From Candidatus Hodarchaeota archaeon (GTDB taxonomy: Archaea > Asgardarchaeota > Lokiarchaeia > Sigyniarchaeales > SOKP01): a DNA stretch of 64,000 bases. A program made the position numbers and the translations under genes. Positions 26,907-36,202 of this stretch are shown here, one piece after another. Where the stretch lies: assembly GCA_048886685.1 (NCBI GenBank), contig JBHLKM010000006.1, forward strand, positions 32,001-96,000, written 5' to 3'. Position 1 is the stretch's first letter; every line of letters begins with the position of its first letter. The notes under the pieces are model-generated. The model searched no databases, was not told the DNA's origin, and was given only the letters and a program-made list of their open reading frames with translations.

Positions 26907-27010
26907 TGGGAGAGGGGGGATTTGAACCCCCGACCACTTGGCCCCCAGCCAAGTTTTAAGCTGTAGAACGTAAAATTTTACAGTATCATACCAATCTAGA
27001 CTACCCTCCC
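26907..27010 (-). tRNA. tRNA-Pro(GGG) with a 30-nt intron at non-canonical position 25/26 (intron 26955..26984)
   Basis: Reverse complement: GGGAGGG TA GTCTAGATTGGTATGAT [ACTGTAAAATTTTACGTTCTACAGCTTAAA] A CTTGG CTGGGGG CCAAG TGGTC GGGGG TTCAAAT CCCCC CTCTCCC A. Removing the bracketed 30 nt gives a 74-nt cloverleaf. Confidence 0.9.
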
Positions 27011-29138: not shown

Positions 29139-29510
29139 ATGCATGAATTTTCATTTGCGTATAATATTTTTAAGGTGGCCGAAGCTACTGCTCTAAAATA
29201 TAACGCTAAAAAAATAACAGAAGTAATTCTTGAAATTGGAGAATTAACTCTTATTGTACCAGAACTTCTCCAACGCTCCTTTGATATGGCCACAGCTGGT
29301 TCAATTGCAGAAGGTGCAAAACTTATAATTAAAATGCTTCCTGGAAAAATAAAATGTCGAGATTGTAATAAAAATTCAGAGGTTACCTTAACCAAGGACG
29401 CACAATTAACCGGACTACAATTATTTCAATGTTCCCATTGCCATAGTAATAATACTGAGATTATCGAAGGGAAAAAAGCAAACGTGAAAAACATTAAAAT
29501 TCAAGAATAA
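29139..29510 (+). CDS. hypA: Hydrogenase maturation nickel metallochaperone HypA
   Basis: MHEFS N-terminus, GEL, CRDC...CSHC, IIEG. Confidence 0.92.
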   Translation: MHEFSFAYNIFKVAEATALKYNAKKITEVILEIGELTLIVPELLQRSFDMATAGSIAEGAKLIIKMLPGKIKCRDCNKNSEVTLTKDAQLTGLQLFQCSHCHSNNTEIIEGKKANVKNIKIQE

Positions 29511-29539: not shown

Positions 29540-29923
29540 TTAGCTTGCAATCAAAATCCCGTTAAGTGTTCCATGCTGCCCTGGACGAGATGTGATTTTT
29601 GCATTGCCTAACTCTGTCTCAACAATCGCTCCTTTCGTCAAAATGTGTCTTCTATTTAAATCTTTTGAGGCGGCATTACTTTCAAATCCTATAATCCTAA
29701 CCTTTGAGGTTTTATTTGTACTAGGGTCAGTTACATTAATAAACATAGTAGAAAATAACTTGAGTTTAGTGTTTCCACCTAAAACACGTTGTTTTTTAAT
29801 TTTATAATTACCAATTTCTGTATCTATCGTAGGGCGAGCAAGTTCTCTTTTCCTTTTCTTTCTAAAATGTTTATATTTTTTACCTGTGTATTTTCTTCTG
29901 CTACGAGCTTGACTTCTTGCCAT
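29540..29923 (-). CDS. rps8e: 30S ribosomal protein S8e
   Basis: RSRRKYTGKK..RKKRKRELAR, RVLGGN, ILTKGAIVETELG..TSRPGQHG. Confidence 0.96.
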   Translation of the reverse strand: MARSQARSRRKYTGKKYKHFRKKRKRELARPTIDTEIGNYKIKKQRVLGGNTKLKLFSTMFINVTDPSTNKTSKVRIIGFESNAASKDLNRRHILTKGAIVETELGNAKITSRPGQHGTLNGILIAS

Positions 29924-30104: not shown

Positions 30105-30746
30105 ATGATGAAAGATAATTTAAACCAACGCATTTACGATGAGAAAGCACTTGAAAAAGCTATAAAATCAGGTACTACCACTGTTGGATTAATTGTTAAG
30201 GATGGTGTAGTAATTGGGACCGAATCACAAGCAAGTGCTGGGACTTTTGTGGCATCTAAACAAGCTCAGAAGCTATTTCAAATTAATGATTTCACAGCAG
30301 CAACCATCGCCGGGGGAGTAGCCGATTGTGTTTACGTAATTAACCAATTAAAAGCTTTATCTCGTTTGAAAGAAGTAGAAGAAGGTATCGTTCCAGAACC
30401 TAAATACATTGCAAGTATTACTCGAAATATTCTCTTCTCAGGAAGGGGTTTTTTCATTAGTATGATGATCGTAGGGGGTTATTCAGAGGTAGAAAAATCT
30501 GGTAAACTTTATGGTATTGATATGTTAGGAACTTTGTATGAAGAGGAAAGCTTCCTTTCGTTTGGTTCAGGTTCACCATTCTCATTAGGTGTTTTAGAAG
30601 CAGATTGGACACCAAATATGACAAAATCAGCAGGACTAGATTTGATAAAAACGGCAATCTCAAGCGCTCGAGAAAGAGATGCTGGTTCAGGATTTAGCTT
30701 ACAAATTTGCACGATTGATAAAGATGGTTTCAAACGAATTGAATAA
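30105..30746 (+). CDS. psmB: 20S proteasome beta subunit
   Basis: Propeptide followed by G-TTTVG (N-terminal Thr nucleophile), AGGVAD, GSGS, RDAGSG. Confidence 0.94.
   Translation: MMKDNLNQRIYDEKALEKAIKSGTTTVGLIVKDGVVIGTESQASAGTFVASKQAQKLFQINDFTAATIAGGVADCVYVINQLKALSRLKEVEEGIVPEPKYIASITRNILFSGRGFFISMMIVGGYSEVEKSGKLYGIDMLGTLYEEESFLSFGSGSPFSLGVLEADWTPNMTKSAGLDLIKTAISSARERDAGSGFSLQICTIDKDGFKRIE
30551..30746 (+). repeat. Direct repeat, copy 1 (3' end of the intact psmB)
   Basis: Colinear without indels with 32524..32719 (offset 1973); about 82% identity by manual count over 185 nt. Confidence 0.9.
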
Positions 30747-30784: not shown

Positions 30785-32185
30785 TTAGGATACTTTATTA
30801 TGCTTTTTCTTAATTATTAGAGATATAAACAAGATAATAAATATCGTCAGTAAGCACACAGGATATCCTGGAATAAAACCACCTCCGTTTCCTTCTTCTG
30901 GGATTGCAAGACCCCCATCTAGAATAGTCCAAGAAAAGTTAGTAATGATAAATTGTCTTGCATCCACAGCTGCGCTACTGTACTGGGAATTACCTGCATG
31001 AAAGGTTACACCGGTTTGCAAGGTTAATTGCGACCAGCCTAATAATAAATTATCATAATTAGGCGTTGATAATGTAACACCATCGAACATATCATTCATG
31101 TTTCCGACGCTCGAGACATCCCAACTACCAATGGGCTGGTTGAATGAAGAAGTCCTATTGAACATAAACCTCATGTCTATAACGCTCGAGACATCCCAAC
31201 TACCGATGGGCTGGTTGAATAAAGATGCCCTCTCGAACATACCACCCATGTATGTCACGCTCGAGACATCCCAGCTGCCGATGGGCTGGTTGAATGAAGA
31301 CGCCCTGCAGAACATATAACCCATGTCTGTGACGCTTGAGACATCCCAACTGCCGATGGGCTGGTTGAATGAAGACGCCCCACTGAACATATATTTCATG
31401 TCTGTGACACTCGAGACATTCCAGCTACCGATGGGCTGGTTGAATGAAGACGCCTCGAAGAACATACCACCCATGTTTGTGACGCTCGAGACATCCCAGC
31501 TGTCGATGGGCTGGTTGAATGAAGACACCCCCCCGAACATACTATACATGTTTGTCACGCTCGAGACATCCCATCCGTCCATGTTACCGCTATTACCAAG
31601 ATTATAGCAATTTCTAAAAGCCCCATATAAATTGCTCGTTCCCGTTAAATTCAAATTATCGGTAGCCGTGAGTTCTAAATTGGAGCACCCAGAAAAATAA
31701 CTCCAAAATTCTCCTAATCGTAAGCACCCCCATTGTTGGATTTCAAGGATCTTCAATCGATCTCCCCAATCATCAAAACACCAACCAATAATCTTTCCTG
31801 TGATCTTAATTGCGTACACTCCCTCGGAAAGATAATTGTGTGTAACCTCAACTTGATTCCAAATTGTGATCGTGTCATTGCTCTCGTCGCCCCAATCCAC
31901 AATGAAATTATAATCTCCACCCGATAGCAGTGGCAAGGTCACTTGATTATTAAGACTAGAACCAGAGCTTGTCTTGGTTGTATCCCAAACTGAGATAAAA
32001 TCGTCTGGGCTATGTGCATTACGTACAGTAAATTTTAAGTTGGTGGGCGTTTGCTTTTGCTCATGAAGTGGAGGTATAAAGCTTGAAATGTTTAGCAACA
32101 CCAAAGAAAATAATAATACAAGTGTTATACTTACCTTTATTAATTTATGTTTCATCAATCTAATCGCATTGAAATTTTTAATCAA
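30785..32185 (-). CDS. DUF285/BspA-type repeat surface protein with signal anchor, PKD-like segment and IPGY-TM-basic C-terminal sorting tail
   Basis: N-terminal hydrophobic helix, VDWGD, repeats FNQPIGSWDVSSVTxMxxMFxxA, C-terminal IPGYPVCLLTIFIILFISLIIKKK. Confidence 0.9.
   Translation of the reverse strand: MIKNFNAIRLMKHKLIKVSITLVLLFSLVLLNISSFIPPLHEQKQTPTNLKFTVRNAHSPDDFISVWDTTKTSSGSSLNNQVTLPLLSGGDYNFIVDWGDESNDTITIWNQVEVTHNYLSEGVYAIKITGKIIGWCFDDWGDRLKILEIQQWGCLRLGEFWSYFSGCSNLELTATDNLNLTGTSNLYGAFRNCYNLGNSGNMDGWDVSSVTNMYSMFGGVSSFNQPIDSWDVSSVTNMGGMFFEASSFNQPIGSWNVSSVTDMKYMFSGASSFNQPIGSWDVSSVTDMGYMFCRASSFNQPIGSWDVSSVTYMGGMFERASLFNQPIGSWDVSSVIDMRFMFNRTSSFNQPIGSWDVSSVGNMNDMFDGVTLSTPNYDNLLLGWSQLTLQTGVTFHAGNSQYSSAAVDARQFIITNFSWTILDGGLAIPEEGNGGGFIPGYPVCLLTIFIILFISLIIKKKHNKVS
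31096..31575 (-). repeat. Coding tandem repeat, 75-bp unit, about 6.4 copies
   Basis: Recurring acgctcgagacatccca...atgggctggttgaatgaaga at 75-bp spacing. Confidence 0.95.
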
Positions 32186-32523
32186 AGAACCTCAATAATT
32201 GTACCTCTTAAAAGGTTTTCTATTTTTTGGTTTCAAAATTTCTAAATCCTGTAAAAAATTAGTTCATAAGTGAAGTTCAACATACTATCCTTTTTCCTTA
32301 TACTTTTAAAAGATTTTAAAATAGTAAATCCAAATAGAACTTCTAATCCTGTTCCACTACAACGAAGAACTATAATGATATTACTCTATTAATATATTTT
32401 AATTCTCTGGTAAGATCATGAAGCTCTTATTAATTCTTGCTATACCTACTTTTACAATCTGAACTGTTCTTATTTTATAGTCTATAACGTGGAGGAACGA
32501 GAATTCTTTTTTAAAATTATGTT

Positions 32524-32719
32524 CTTCAATTCAATTGGTTCAGGTTCACCATTTTCATCAGGTGTTTTAGAAGTCGATTGGAGACCTAATTTGACAAGAG
32601 AACAGGGGATTAAGTTAATAAAAACAGCAATCTCAAGCTCTCGGGAAAGAGATGCTGGTTCAGGATTTGGCTTACAAATTTGCACAAATGATAAAGATGG
32701 TTTCAGCTAGGTTCAATAG
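32524..32719 (+). pseudogene. psmB: Displaced 3' fragment of psmB (direct repeat, copy 2)
   Basis: FNSIGSGSPFSSGVLEVDWRPNLTREQGIKLIKTAISSSRERDAGSGFGLQICTNDKDGFS*VQ*. The 5' part is absent and there is a premature TAG three codons before the aligned stop. Confidence 0.88.
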
Positions 32720-32736: not shown

Positions 32737-33234
32737 CTACTTATTCTCAATTAGCAAATTGATTTGTAACAATTCTTTATTGTAATAAATAAAACCATTT
32801 ATCTCTTCAGTGTTCATATCCATAATCGTCCAAATTTGATTTTTAAATGGATTTCTCTTTTTTCCTATATCTTCATCAAGATATATCATATTTTCTATAT
32901 CAATTGAACTAGGGAAAGGAGGAACAGGATGTGAATGAAATATACTTATCATTCTTAACTTCCTATTATAAACAGCATCCTGATGTATTTCAAAATACTT
33001 ATCAGAATCTTGAATTAAAGCAAATGAGCCATAAGATTCAATGTTAGATTTAAGGCAATAGAAACGCTTTCCAATATAATGAATTTGAAAATCATCCTTA
33101 ACGGTCTCAATCTTTTTTATATCTCCAAAAATAAGTCCGCAAGCTTCAGTTGGAGCTGCATTTCTGTTACATTCTTTTAATTCTGCCTCAATTTTTTCAG
33201 TTAATACTAAAATTATATCTTTTTCAACTTTCAT
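32737..33234 (-). CDS. JAB1/MPN+ (JAMM) metalloprotease
   Basis: EACGLIFG ... FHSHPVPPFPSSID (E-x-HxH-x7-S-x2-D type motif). Confidence 0.9.
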   Translation of the reverse strand: MKVEKDIILVLTEKIEAELKECNRNAAPTEACGLIFGDIKKIETVKDDFQIHYIGKRFYCLKSNIESYGSFALIQDSDKYFEIHQDAVYNRKLRMISIFHSHPVPPFPSSIDIENMIYLDEDIGKKRNPFKNQIWTIMDMNTEEINGFIYYNKELLQINLLIENK

Positions 33235-33250
33235 TATCTAATCTCATTAA

Positions 33251-33934
33251 TTATATTAATGTTAATGCTGCATTCAGCGTTGCTAACCTTGCTTTTTGAA
33301 GACTATCACCAGATCCGATTACGATAACATCGTTCTTTTCTAATTTAATATTTTCTTTAGATATATCTGTTTCAAAATAAGTCTGAAGGGATTTATTAAT
33401 AACCATATCATTATTAATCGGTTCTGAATGAGATTTTGAAGGAAAAATTAGATTCTCACCATTAAATACTAAACAAGTTGCTCCAGAACCACTTATTTTA
33501 ATAGCAGCATCTCTTTGAGAAACACCATTTGATATTTTACGAGATCCGTTTTTTACTAAACAAAAATAAGAATATGTTTTATCAGTTTCTATAATAATGT
33601 CTTTTAGTATGGAAGATTTACCTTCTTTAATAATGGGTATTATTTTTTTAATTTTGTTTAAATAATCTATGCCTTTTTCTGTTAAGAAATGTCCCCTGCG
33701 TTTCCTTTCATCTGTTACATTAACAAATTTGATGTTCTTATTCAGCTTCTTAATCATCGATTTAGCGGTTCCCTCACCTATTAATAATTCTTTTTGTAAA
33801 CGGTATCTTCCGATACCCTCGCGATTTTCATCAAATATGAATAAAGCCAATATGATATGAACTTTCTCAAATGTTGGTTTAATTGTGGAGCTTTGAAATA
33901 GACTATCTAATTCTTCAAACATCACTAGATTCAA
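33251..33934 (-). CDS. Winged-helix protein, DUF4443-like
   Basis: IGRYRLQKELLIGEGTAKS...GHFLTEKG; QRDAAIKISGSGATCLVF. Confidence 0.7.
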   Translation of the reverse strand: MNLVMFEELDSLFQSSTIKPTFEKVHIILALFIFDENREGIGRYRLQKELLIGEGTAKSMIKKLNKNIKFVNVTDERKRRGHFLTEKGIDYLNKIKKIIPIIKEGKSSILKDIIIETDKTYSYFCLVKNGSRKISNGVSQRDAAIKISGSGATCLVFNGENLIFPSKSHSEPINNDMVINKSLQTYFETDISKENIKLEKNDVIVIGSGDSLQKARLATLNAALTLI

Positions 33935-34052
33935 TATGAATAATATATTAAAGTAAAAAAATTAATATAAAAATGCAGTTGACAGATATTGGTACTCAAA
34001 TTAATTCTCATCTCTTTATTTAAATATTATTGCTAATATAACTTTAATAGAA

Positions 34053-35042
34053 ATGTCAAAAAAAAGTGGATCTGAAAAAGATATACAAAACCTCTTACTA
34101 TTTAAACAGAAAGAAGGTCCTAAGAAAAAAGAGGCTGACAATTTTTTAGTTGAAAAAACGAATAAAGAAGACAAGATTAAAATCACAAATAGCCTAATAA
34201 CACAAGGATCCCATTATAGATATACAATCTTATTAAATAATGAAAATTCAACAGCGATTTCAGATATTAATATTCTCGTTTTATATCCGGAATTCTTAAA
34301 ATTCTCAAGATTTTATCCTTCGACATTAAATGTGTCCTGTTCAATCGAAGAAGATCAAGGTAAAAAAACCAATTTAAATCTAAATATTAAAGGATTAAAA
34401 GGTGGAAGTTCAGAAAAAATATTTCTACATTTTACTCCTTCTACTCAATTAGCCATTGGAGAATTTAAAACTTCCTTAAAATATACAAACAATGAAGGGG
34501 AGGAAAGAGAGATCAATTCTGATTCTATTAAAATTCAAATTGATAAACTGAATATAACTCCTAAGATTATGTCCCATTCACGGATCAGAGAATTTTCCCA
34601 AATACCTGGTATGAAGAGAGCTTTAATAAGCTTAGGAATAGGAACAAAAAAAAAATTGAATTTAGAAAAACTATTCGATGTTTTCGAAAAATTAGTTCTA
34701 TCATATAATTTTCAATTTATCACTAAAGATAGAGAAAAGGGAATTGTATGGTTTTTTGGTTCTGAATTAAATTCCAACAATGACATATTAGCCCTTAGTA
34801 AAATAAATTCATACATTATCGAAATAATAGCATACGTTAAAAATCCCGTTATACTTGGTTTATTTCTTTCTTCATTCATAAATAACCTTAAGGAACAATT
34901 GTTAATGAATAAAATTATAAAATCAAATATGAAGATATTTGAATTAGAATGTGTTAATTGTGGTGAGAATTTGCCTTATTTTCCGAAAAAAGGTGAATTT
35001 ATCACCTGCATTAAATGTTCGTACGAACAACTCGTTTGGTAG
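34053..35042 (+). CDS. Coat/adaptor appendage-like protein (Ig-like plus platform) with C-terminal zinc ribbon, paralog A
   Basis: Full-length paralog of 35213..36202 (both 329 aa), sharing LHFTP, ITPKI, EFSQIPGMKRA, CxxCG..LPYFPKKGE..CxxCxYEQ.VW. Confidence 0.6.
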   Translation: MSKKSGSEKDIQNLLLFKQKEGPKKKEADNFLVEKTNKEDKIKITNSLITQGSHYRYTILLNNENSTAISDINILVLYPEFLKFSRFYPSTLNVSCSIEEDQGKKTNLNLNIKGLKGGSSEKIFLHFTPSTQLAIGEFKTSLKYTNNEGEEREINSDSIKIQIDKLNITPKIMSHSRIREFSQIPGMKRALISLGIGTKKKLNLEKLFDVFEKLVLSYNFQFITKDREKGIVWFFGSELNSNNDILALSKINSYIIEIIAYVKNPVILGLFLSSFINNLKEQLLMNKIIKSNMKIFELECVNCGENLPYFPKKGEFITCIKCSYEQLVW

Positions 35043-35212
35043 GTTGTTTATATTTTTTTTTTGACCAAAAATTCAATTCTTCAAGAGAATCTTATATATA
35101 ATTAAAAAAAAGGAATATTAAAAAAAATATAAATCAAATTGTCATATTATTATTTATCAAAAATTAAGAAATTCAATATCTATCTTTTAAAGTTAAATTC
35201 TTTTAAACAAAA

Positions 35213-36202
35213 ATGTCTGGTAAAAAGGAAAAAAGCGGTGTAGATCTAGCACAAAACTTAGTTATTTTTAAAAGTAAAGAATCAACTAAGATTAAAAAGC
35301 CTGATAAACTCACATTTGAAAGAATTGACCAAGAAGATAAAATAAAGTTTATAAGTGATTTCAAAACTCACGGAAGTCATTATGTTCTTTCAATTCAACT
35401 ATTAAATGAAAGTTTAGCTCCTATTTCTGAAGTGAGAATTAAAATTAGCTTTCCCCCCTTTTTTATGCTTACCAGAAGCTATCCTCCCACAATATATATA
35501 CCTGCATCCTATGAAGAAGAGGGTTTAACAAAATTAAATCTTGAACTTGATGAATTAAATGAAAGAAGTTCAAAACAAATAAATCTGCATTTTACTCCTT
35601 TATCCTTAGGTAACGAAGGAGAAATAAGATCTATTGTCACTTATGTTAATAATAAAGATTTTGTTAGGGTCATAGCTTCAGACCCATTATCAATCACGCT
35701 AGATAATATAACCATTACTCCGAAAATAATTCCTAGTTCCTATATCGGAGAATTTTCTCAAATTCCCGGCATGAAGAGAGCAATTAAAAGCCTTGGAGTT
35801 GGAATAGTAGGTAAAGGAGACCCTGATCTATACTTCAATATTTTAGAACAAGTATTTCTAAGAAACAACCTTCAATTAATAACAAAAGATCCAGATAAGA
35901 GAATTCTTTGGTATTTTGGAGCTGAATTAGAATCGAGAGATGACGTTCTAGTAATTGGTCAGATAGTGTCTGATAAGGTAGAGATTATCGCAATTTCTAA
36001 GAATCATCATATACTTATTTCATTTTTAACATTATTCGCTAATGAGTTTAAAGAGCAGATTCTCATAAGAGAATTTGTATCCTCCCCAGATCAGATCTAC
36101 GATTTAGAATGCAAGTATTGTGGAGCTATTCTTCCATATTTTCCTAAAAAGGGAGAAGAAATTGCATGTAGTAAATGTAATTACGAACAAGTTGTCTGGT
36201 AA
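35213..36202 (+). CDS. Coat/adaptor appendage-like protein (Ig-like plus platform) with C-terminal zinc ribbon, paralog B
   Basis: Sequence pattern parallels the recalled beta-COP appendage (see findings). Confidence 0.6.
   Translation: MSGKKEKSGVDLAQNLVIFKSKESTKIKKPDKLTFERIDQEDKIKFISDFKTHGSHYVLSIQLLNESLAPISEVRIKISFPPFFMLTRSYPPTIYIPASYEEEGLTKLNLELDELNERSSKQINLHFTPLSLGNEGEIRSIVTYVNNKDFVRVIASDPLSITLDNITITPKIIPSSYIGEFSQIPGMKRAIKSLGVGIVGKGDPDLYFNILEQVFLRNNLQLITKDPDKRILWYFGAELESRDDVLVIGQIVSDKVEIIAISKNHHILISFLTLFANEFKEQILIREFVSSPDQIYDLECKYCGAILPYFPKKGEEIACSKCNYEQVVW

Follow-up and report, generated by a model that had tools for sequence, protein, structure and literature searches.

The ears of the AP-2 alpha and beta2, AP-4 beta, beta- and gamma-COP and BBSome subunits are all built in the same order, the Ig-like sandwich coming first and the TBP-like platform second. 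Eukaryotic ears serve as interaction hubs for short peptide motifs, and the peptide-motif sites on the platform and sandwich of AP-2 use aromatic residues. Parts of such ears have also been described in archaea. Eme et al. 2023 (PMC10307638) reported stand-alone Alpha_adaptinC2 and B2-adapt-app_C domains from Asgard archaea; in that study the AP domains were described as 'not fused to each other' and the sandwich alone was annotated. Liu et al. (10.1101/2020.10.19.343400) described Asgard fusions with the C-terminal domains of adaptin/COPI subunits, as well as Vps28/UFL1 fusions, and Makarova et al. 2024 (10.1101/2024.02.06.579148) described archaeal IG+TBP appendage regions, some with a Zn ribbon, together with 'Meth_adaptin' loci and Asgard Vps28-C/longin/TPR/PCI fusions. 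Here we deal with two adjacent genes, termed A and B, in a 64,000-nucleotide stretch of contig JBHLKM010000006.1 of Candidatus Hodarchaeota archaeon (the window, meaning this whole stretch). The analysis shows A and B to be cytosolic, trunk-less ear proteins, in which a tail, a sandwich and a platform are followed by a zinc ribbon packed at the end.

The family as such is not new, its identification being already known. Supplementary file 5 of Eme et al. contains several Lokiarchaeales proteins of the A/B family, which share with A and B a length of ~330 residues, the same tail motif, an IPSS...K.AIKS.G block and a C..C...C.KC...Q.VW end. The Lokiarchaeales_BC2 entry corresponds to the protein that we call P0127, with the same N-terminal residues; P0127 matches residues 18-329 of B at 43% identity (E 5.3e-75). 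What we add to that report is the presence of platform and sandwich in one and the same protein, the zinc ribbon, the tail motif, a conserved four-gene block, orthologues bearing a PCI domain, and the duplication history of A and B. The A/B family resembles the proteins of Makarova et al. and Liu et al. in its archaeal IG + TBP region and in having relatives that carry PCI or TPR domains. Unlike the proteins of Makarova et al., however, A and B have no ESCRT-type module and do not lie in an ESCRT locus, their neighbours being DUF4443, JAB and proteasome beta genes. They differ from eukaryotic ears in having no alpha-solenoid trunk and no long hinge, in the extra C-terminal zinc ribbon, and in the angle between the two subdomains. 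Asgard homologues of trafficking parts bear on the origin of the eukaryotic endomembrane system, and our structure models and controls confirm the presence of a complete adaptor ear, with both subdomains, in a widespread protein of Lokiarchaeia.

The two genes and their parts are the following.

34053..35042, + strand: ear protein A, 329 residues, with the architecture of B and read as the derived paralog (open reading frame; 46% identity to B)
34086..34106, + strand: tail motif of A, QNLLLFK, residues 12-18
35043..35212, + strand: A-B spacer, with a T-run past the stop of A and then the putative ancestral upstream (promoter) region of B
35213..36202, + strand: ear protein B, 329 residues, read as the ancestral copy (open reading frame; AlphaFold2 model; ear matches; slot by DUF4443), consisting of tail (residues 1-37), sandwich (38-165), platform (166-287) and zinc ribbon (295-329)
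35252..35272, + strand: tail motif of B, QNLVIFK, residues 14-20, in the disordered, charged N-terminal tail
35324..35707, + strand: Ig-like beta-sandwich of B, residues 38-165 (sub-threshold PF02883; invariant N65)
35708..36073, + strand: TBP-like platform of B, residues 166-287 (structure matches, best AP-4 beta 2mj7)
36095..36199, + strand: C-terminal zinc ribbon of B, residues 295-329, with C300, C303, C319 and C322 (invariant cysteines; ribbon profiles)
33935..34052, no strand assigned: divergent 118-bp intergenic region between DUF4443 and A

A first-pass annotation, made by a model from the letters of this DNA, had described two co-oriented paralogs of 329 residues with zinc-ribbon ends, and the description proved exact down to the coordinates. 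A and B are 46% identical across 328 residues (E 1e-94), and their C-terminal ends run CxxC...CxxC and then YEQLVW and YEQVVW, respectively. In an alignment of 47 relatives the invariant positions are the four ribbon cysteines and the sandwich asparagine N65, while Q326 and W329 are at least 90% conserved among relatives. The platform of B holds an invariant tryptophan, W233, and a conserved F...P..K.AIKS.G block. The tail motif, which can be written (Q/H)xL(V/I)(I/V/L)F(K/E), is kept in the stand-alone forms, with its phenylalanine at least 90% conserved.

The fold of B was examined through an AlphaFold2 model built on the 47-relative alignment (predicted local distance difference test, pLDDT, 87.5; predicted template-modelling score, pTM, 0.79). 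In this model, residues 1-37 are disordered (pLDDT ~30), residues 44-163 form the beta-sandwich, residues 177-285 are alpha/beta and residues 295-329 form the zinc ribbon, which has a pLDDT >90. This agrees with the beta-rich N-terminal half and alpha/beta C-terminal half proposed at first pass. When the model was compared with the PDB by Foldseek, ears filled nearly all of the top 12 places: the best matches were the beta-COP appendage (9qpq_H, E 2.5e-9) and the beta2 ear (1e42, E 1.2e-8), and gamma-COP, the alpha-adaptin ear and BBS7 were also among them. The alignments to whole ears extended over 256-277 columns and covered both subdomains. A Foldseek-independent comparison by VIA-align with 48,161 chains placed the AP-4 beta platform 2mj7 first (Z 12.8, root-mean-square deviation (rmsd) 2.5 Å, 114/141 residues); next came the whole beta2 ear (Z 12.8) and the alpha ear (Z 12.6), with residues 39-281 of the model spanned.

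The C-terminal half of B folded well in isolation (pLDDT 94.5). The three top VIA-align matches of the platform folded alone were AP-4 beta (2mj7), beta2 (3h1z) and alpha (1w80), at Z 11.2-11.3 and rmsd 2.5-2.6 Å, with the superposition on these adaptin platforms covering 109-115 residues. The isolated platform also matched gamma-COP (Z 9.0) and BBS9 (Z 8.0), and the nearest unrelated fold was a Roco COR domain (Z 9.1). Judging from the models, B possesses the platform subdomain, with the sandwich directly before it in one chain, in the order seen in ears, and at the level of the fold the predicted likeness to ears greatly exceeds chance. The earlier proposal of trunk-less ears, each a sandwich plus a TBP-like platform capped by a zinc ribbon, is therefore supported by its best structure matches, which are ears; the comparison by AlphaFold2, Foldseek and VIA-align yielded a platform, and matches well beyond generic CARDB or Ig domains.

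At the first pass, B had moreover been paralleled block by block with the beta-COP appendage. All five quoted strings of B are present in the protein, and the five beta-COP strings set against them are real, occurring in 9qpq_H and 5a1u_G (residues 743-940) in the order in which they were given. The collinearity of the blocks thus holds, but it does not establish a preference for beta-COP over the beta2, alpha, AP-4-beta and gamma-COP ears, the identity of B to all ears being 6-14%.

Sequence profiles gave a partial view of the same relationship. PF02883 (Alpha_adaptinC2) matched 25 of the 47 relatives individually at E<0.1 (best E 2.9e-5), and precomputed PF02883 matches are present on two relatives; within this genome, A and B are the only PF02883-like genes. 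A PF09066 profile search of the genome gave zero matches, but zero in the controls as well. Sequence-only searches of solved structures, with B, the family profile or the platform profile as a query, recovered no adaptin or COPI chain, and returned weak zinc-ribbon matches alone, of the eS27/eS31/LysW/RPB9 type. A search against NCBIfam produced nothing useful.

Exhaustive and word-based searches brought up several hundred relatives, all Asgard-labelled, almost all annotated as 'hypothetical' and mostly 327-335 residues long; the source labels of the close homologues are Promethearchaeota or Lokiarchaeia. The window itself is AT-rich archaeal DNA (~30% GC) from a 4.4-Mb assembly of 47 contigs, and sediment metagenomes contain it. 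We assessed the distribution by querying 300 sampled genomes of the phylum with B. A match was found in 59 of the 67 genomes belonging to the family of the window and in all of the sister-family genomes (7/7), where the protein has ~420 residues; outside these two families the same sample gave almost no match.

In the longer relatives the tail is replaced by an N-terminal domain. The distant orthologue P0155 has a PCI domain above the Pfam cut-off, and P0188 (537 residues) has a TPR solenoid ahead of the ear and the zinc ribbon, a 'trunk plus ear' layout. The P0188 gene starts 5 nt downstream of an SPFH/Band_7 gene (L035 6799-9614; L036 1353-4168), an arrangement that resembles the 'Meth_adaptin' loci of Makarova et al. 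When the ESM Atlas was searched by shape, the ear geometry of B turned up in a 788-residue Asgard family with UFL1/DDRGK/PCI domains, in a stand-alone Methanobacteriota protein of 243 residues and, at a lower score, in a eukaryotic AP-3 beta cluster. In a feature search of the same resource, high scores came from the ear family's own clusters only. A 613-residue protein from another Asgard family matches just the platform and ribbon part; it has zinc ribbons and no informative domain. The ESM Atlas also contains a Thorarchaeota cluster (407 residues, 80% of its members with HEAT_2) that matched weakly (template-modelling (TM) score 0.38, 151 residues) and may represent a HEAT-plus-ear protein.

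Most genomes of the window's family contain one copy of the gene. In 14 neighbourhoods from six genera of this family, the slot by DUF4443 is occupied by a single B-type gene. Orthologues of A do exist, at 50-79% identity; the tandem order DUF4443 / A / B / histone is seen again in another assembly (L037) and in consecutive NCBI locus tags, while genome G191 has an A-type copy at an unrelated locus. When 82 proteins were placed in a maximum-likelihood tree with the long forms as the root, the A-type proteins made up one clade (SH-aLRT 98) nested among B lineages of the same genus, and the stem of this clade (0.40) is about three times as long as the neighbouring stems. The 170-bp spacer between A and B begins with a T-run. 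It can be aligned with the sequence that separates DUF4443 from B in same-genus genomes (z 4.0-6.8), and the DUF4443-A spacer cannot (z 0.8-2.5). As judged from tree and spacers, B is the ancestral gene and kept the old promoter, and A is a fast-diverging tandem duplicate that arose at the genus level, probably sub- or neo-functionalised toward other partners. Within the A-B spacer, a 13-nt stretch resembling the reverse complement of the first codons of DUF4443 was considered and dismissed as too short in AT-rich DNA.

Since A is nested within the B lineages of its own genus, it must be regarded as a recent duplicate, which speaks against the pair mirroring the two large subunits of coats, as had been put forward at the first pass in the form of an A-B heterodimer. 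Binding between A and B within this lineage remains compatible with the duplication history. A complex prediction for A(36-329) and B(38-329), run with alignments, returned a score of 0.00; it had no control pairs and was not used either way.

Upstream of the ear genes, the window contains the following features.

29139-29510: HypA
29540-29923: ribosomal protein S8e
30105..30746, + strand: proteasome beta subunit, outer member of the conserved block (PF00227; synteny)
30785-32185, - strand: DUF285 surface-protein gene, of higher GC, between proteasome beta and JAB
32737..33234, - strand: Prok-JAB (JAMM/MPN+) peptidase, co-directional with DUF4443 (PF14464; HSH...S.D motif in the translation)
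33251..33934, - strand: DUF4443 / PH0730-like winged-helix protein, divergent neighbour of A (PF14544, PF22167; PDB 2p8t)

The gene order proteasome beta / JAB / DUF4443 / ear, in which DUF4443 and JAB form an operon divergent from the ear gene, was found at 12 of the 14 loci sampled from six genera of the window's family. The same block surrounds two distant orthologues that are 26-29% identical to B, namely P0155 (the PCI-bearing form, at locus L034) and P0154 (at locus L054), and the outer flanks of those two blocks differ from the flanks in the window's family. The sister family has a rearranged gene order, with DUF4443 still 0.3-7 kb from the ear gene. Altogether, DUF4443 lies beside or near the ear gene in the window's family, in the sister family and at L034, L054 and L051. 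In the window the DUF285 gene is a lineage-specific insertion, because proteasome beta and JAB are directly adjacent in all the other sampled genomes.

No trunk, mu, sigma or other coat gene occurs in this or any other sampled neighbourhood, and ~20 sampled neighbourhoods of the ear family were devoid of ESCRT genes. The Adaptin_N (PF01602) matches in this genome are unlinked HEAT-repeat proteins on other contigs, and proteins of a similar kind were matched in bacterial controls. A and B have no Adaptin_N trunk attached, being 329 residues long with a 37-residue tail only, nor does either of them contain a Pfam domain of an ESCRT-I/II module. The genome does encode ubiquitin-family proteins, on other contigs. 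The suggestion made at first pass that the pair represents a proto-vesicle-coat module thus found no backing in the synteny survey, where the neighbours are proteasome beta, JAB and DUF4443. Our results correct the reading of the tandem pair: A is a recent duplicate, and the genes nearby encode a JAB peptidase and a proteasome subunit instead of components of a coat.

We propose that the ear protein would be a non-enzymatic interaction hub, like the ears of eukaryotes. Partner proteins would dock by short motifs on the surfaces of platform and sandwich, and the tail motif (or, in older forms, the PCI or TPR domain) and/or the zinc ribbon would anchor the hub to another component. The pathway would be one of ubiquitin-like or JAMM/proteasome-linked sorting or turnover, rather than vesicle coating. 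We favor a ubiquitin- or proteasome-related pathway because distant orthologues in the same slot swap the tail for a PCI domain, which usually partners MPN/JAB subunits; because relatives are fused to UFL1/DDRGK/PCI modules or, according to the literature, to Vps28; and because no coat genes are linked. We give the explanation as a whole an even chance of being right, and the assignment to ubiquitin-like or proteasome-linked sorting, which draws on gene context and analogy, a chance that is even at best and perhaps slightly lower. This offers a testable idea, namely that Asgard ears may act as interaction hubs in such sorting.

A more specific version of this proposal would join the proteasome beta subunit, the JAMM/MPN+ peptidase, DUF4443 and the ear-ribbon protein (with its older PCI form) into a primitive lid/CSN-like PCI+MPN receptor system, with the ear as the receptor for substrates or ubiquitin-like proteins. 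We regard this version as improbable. If it were true, the ear fold would have served ubiquitin-linked sorting or degradation before eukaryotic coats recruited the ear.

Several observations weigh against the proposed explanation. On the structural side, the global superposition of the B model on solved ears, with both subdomains included, is poor (rmsd 13-15 Å, TM ~0.26), because the angle between the two subdomains is not that of the solved ears; this geometry is common to other archaeal ear models (TM 0.61, rmsd 2.8-2.9 Å), in a comparison that involves predicted models only. PF02883 scores 16.1 bits on A and 15.6 bits on B, both below the cut-off of 27.6. On the functional side, the link stands on gene neighbourhood and on the domain fusions of relatives, and A and B themselves have no PCI domain. 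DUF4443, with its winged-helix N-terminus, could simply be a transcription factor, and it occurs in 110 of 150 phylum genomes, some of them from families in which no ear gene was detected. Remote paralogs are found in unrelated contexts, by SPFH, by peptidase M28 or with no conserved neighbour. Finally, in one genus of the window's family the proteasome-JAB-DUF4443 block is intact but an unrelated 434-residue gene fills the ear slot (L049 7727-9031; L050 5026-6330), meaning that the block does not need the ear.

Other explanations can be set against the proposed one. The resemblance to eukaryotic ears might be convergent, a generic Ig-like domain having come to precede a generic helix-grip domain with no shared descent. 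The sandwich alone matched many pilin, complement and cohesin Ig domains in VIA-align (Z 10-12), Foldseek on the platform alone retrieved nothing at E<=0.001 (best E 2.3e-3, with Bet v 1, BamC and helix-grip folds mixed in), and the divergent angle between the subdomains would fit as well. However, convergence would not account for the PF02883 matches in more than half of the aligned relatives, for ears taking nearly all of the leading places in the two-subdomain alignments, for the exclusively adaptin nature of the top three platform matches, or for the collinear blocks shared with beta-COP, and we consider it very improbable. A nucleic-acid-binding or regulatory protein, in which a TBP-like fold and a zinc ribbon would act with the winged-helix DUF4443 near a histone gene, is suggested by the neighbours (a winged-helix-turn-helix protein and a histone), by the nearest sequence matches of the ribbon (eS27/eS31 and RNA-polymerase/TFIIB-type ribbons) and by the aIF2-alpha C-terminal domain and KA1/METTL16 domains, which match the platform at Z ~7. 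Yet the adaptin platforms lie 3-4 Z units above those folds, the sandwich-platform order is that of ears, the ribbon matches are weak (E at least 0.007), and the histone neighbour is conserved within the window's family only, being absent at L034 and L054. Such a role is therefore improbable in our view.

The remaining alternatives keep the ear and change its setting. Following Makarova et al. 2024, the protein could be an ESCRT-linked cargo adaptor, an 'ESCRT-0 analogue' whose ear recruits cargo or accessory proteins. The same study (10.1101/2024.02.06.579148) found Asgard appendage regions fused to Vps28-C/longin and methanogen ESCRT loci with SPFH that hold stand-alone or Zn-ribbon ears; in our data, the position of the TPR-ear-ribbon relative P0188 directly downstream of an SPFH/Band_7 gene and the shared geometry of the 243-residue methanogen ear point the same way. 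We nevertheless find this explanation, which ranks second after the proposed one, unlikely, as the Snf7 and Vps4 genes of this genome are on contigs C10 and C3 whereas the window is on C6, and as the ~20 neighbourhoods mentioned above are free of ESCRT genes. Most improbable, in our estimate, is an A-B heterodimer that would be a proto-coat module, lacking a trunk and preceding the paired large subunits of AP/COPI. The ear fold is common to the large subunits and the tandem A-B pair recurs in several assemblies. Duplicated homomers, moreover, often become heteromers. Against this, A is a genus-level duplicate, most genomes of the family have a single copy and the A-type copy of G191 is unlinked, while the locus lacks trunk, mu and sigma homologues and the HEAT proteins that match Adaptin_N lie elsewhere in the genome. 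The proposal of a hub in ubiquitin-like or proteasome-linked sorting is thus the one that we retain.

Some further observations concern the neighbourhood. HypA and S8e constitute a conserved outer flank within the window's family, not in more distant lineages. Beyond the DUF285 gene, a 73-residue open reading frame (32489-32710) duplicates the C-terminal portion of proteasome beta. In the genus represented by L049 and L050, DUF4443 is unusually divergent (~26 bits vs ~70 for PF14544); its divergence and the unrelated gene in the ear slot may co-vary, judging from a single event. At L051 (1025-3566), the gene for a long form of 398 residues, P0144, closely follows a phage-type integrase gene and lies 4.4 kb from DUF4443, which suggests a local rearrangement. 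Elsewhere in the window, positions 26907-27010 match the tRNA family of Rfam (RF00005, 40.8 bits); at 104 nt the match is longer than a standard tRNA, so this tRNA probably bears an intron.

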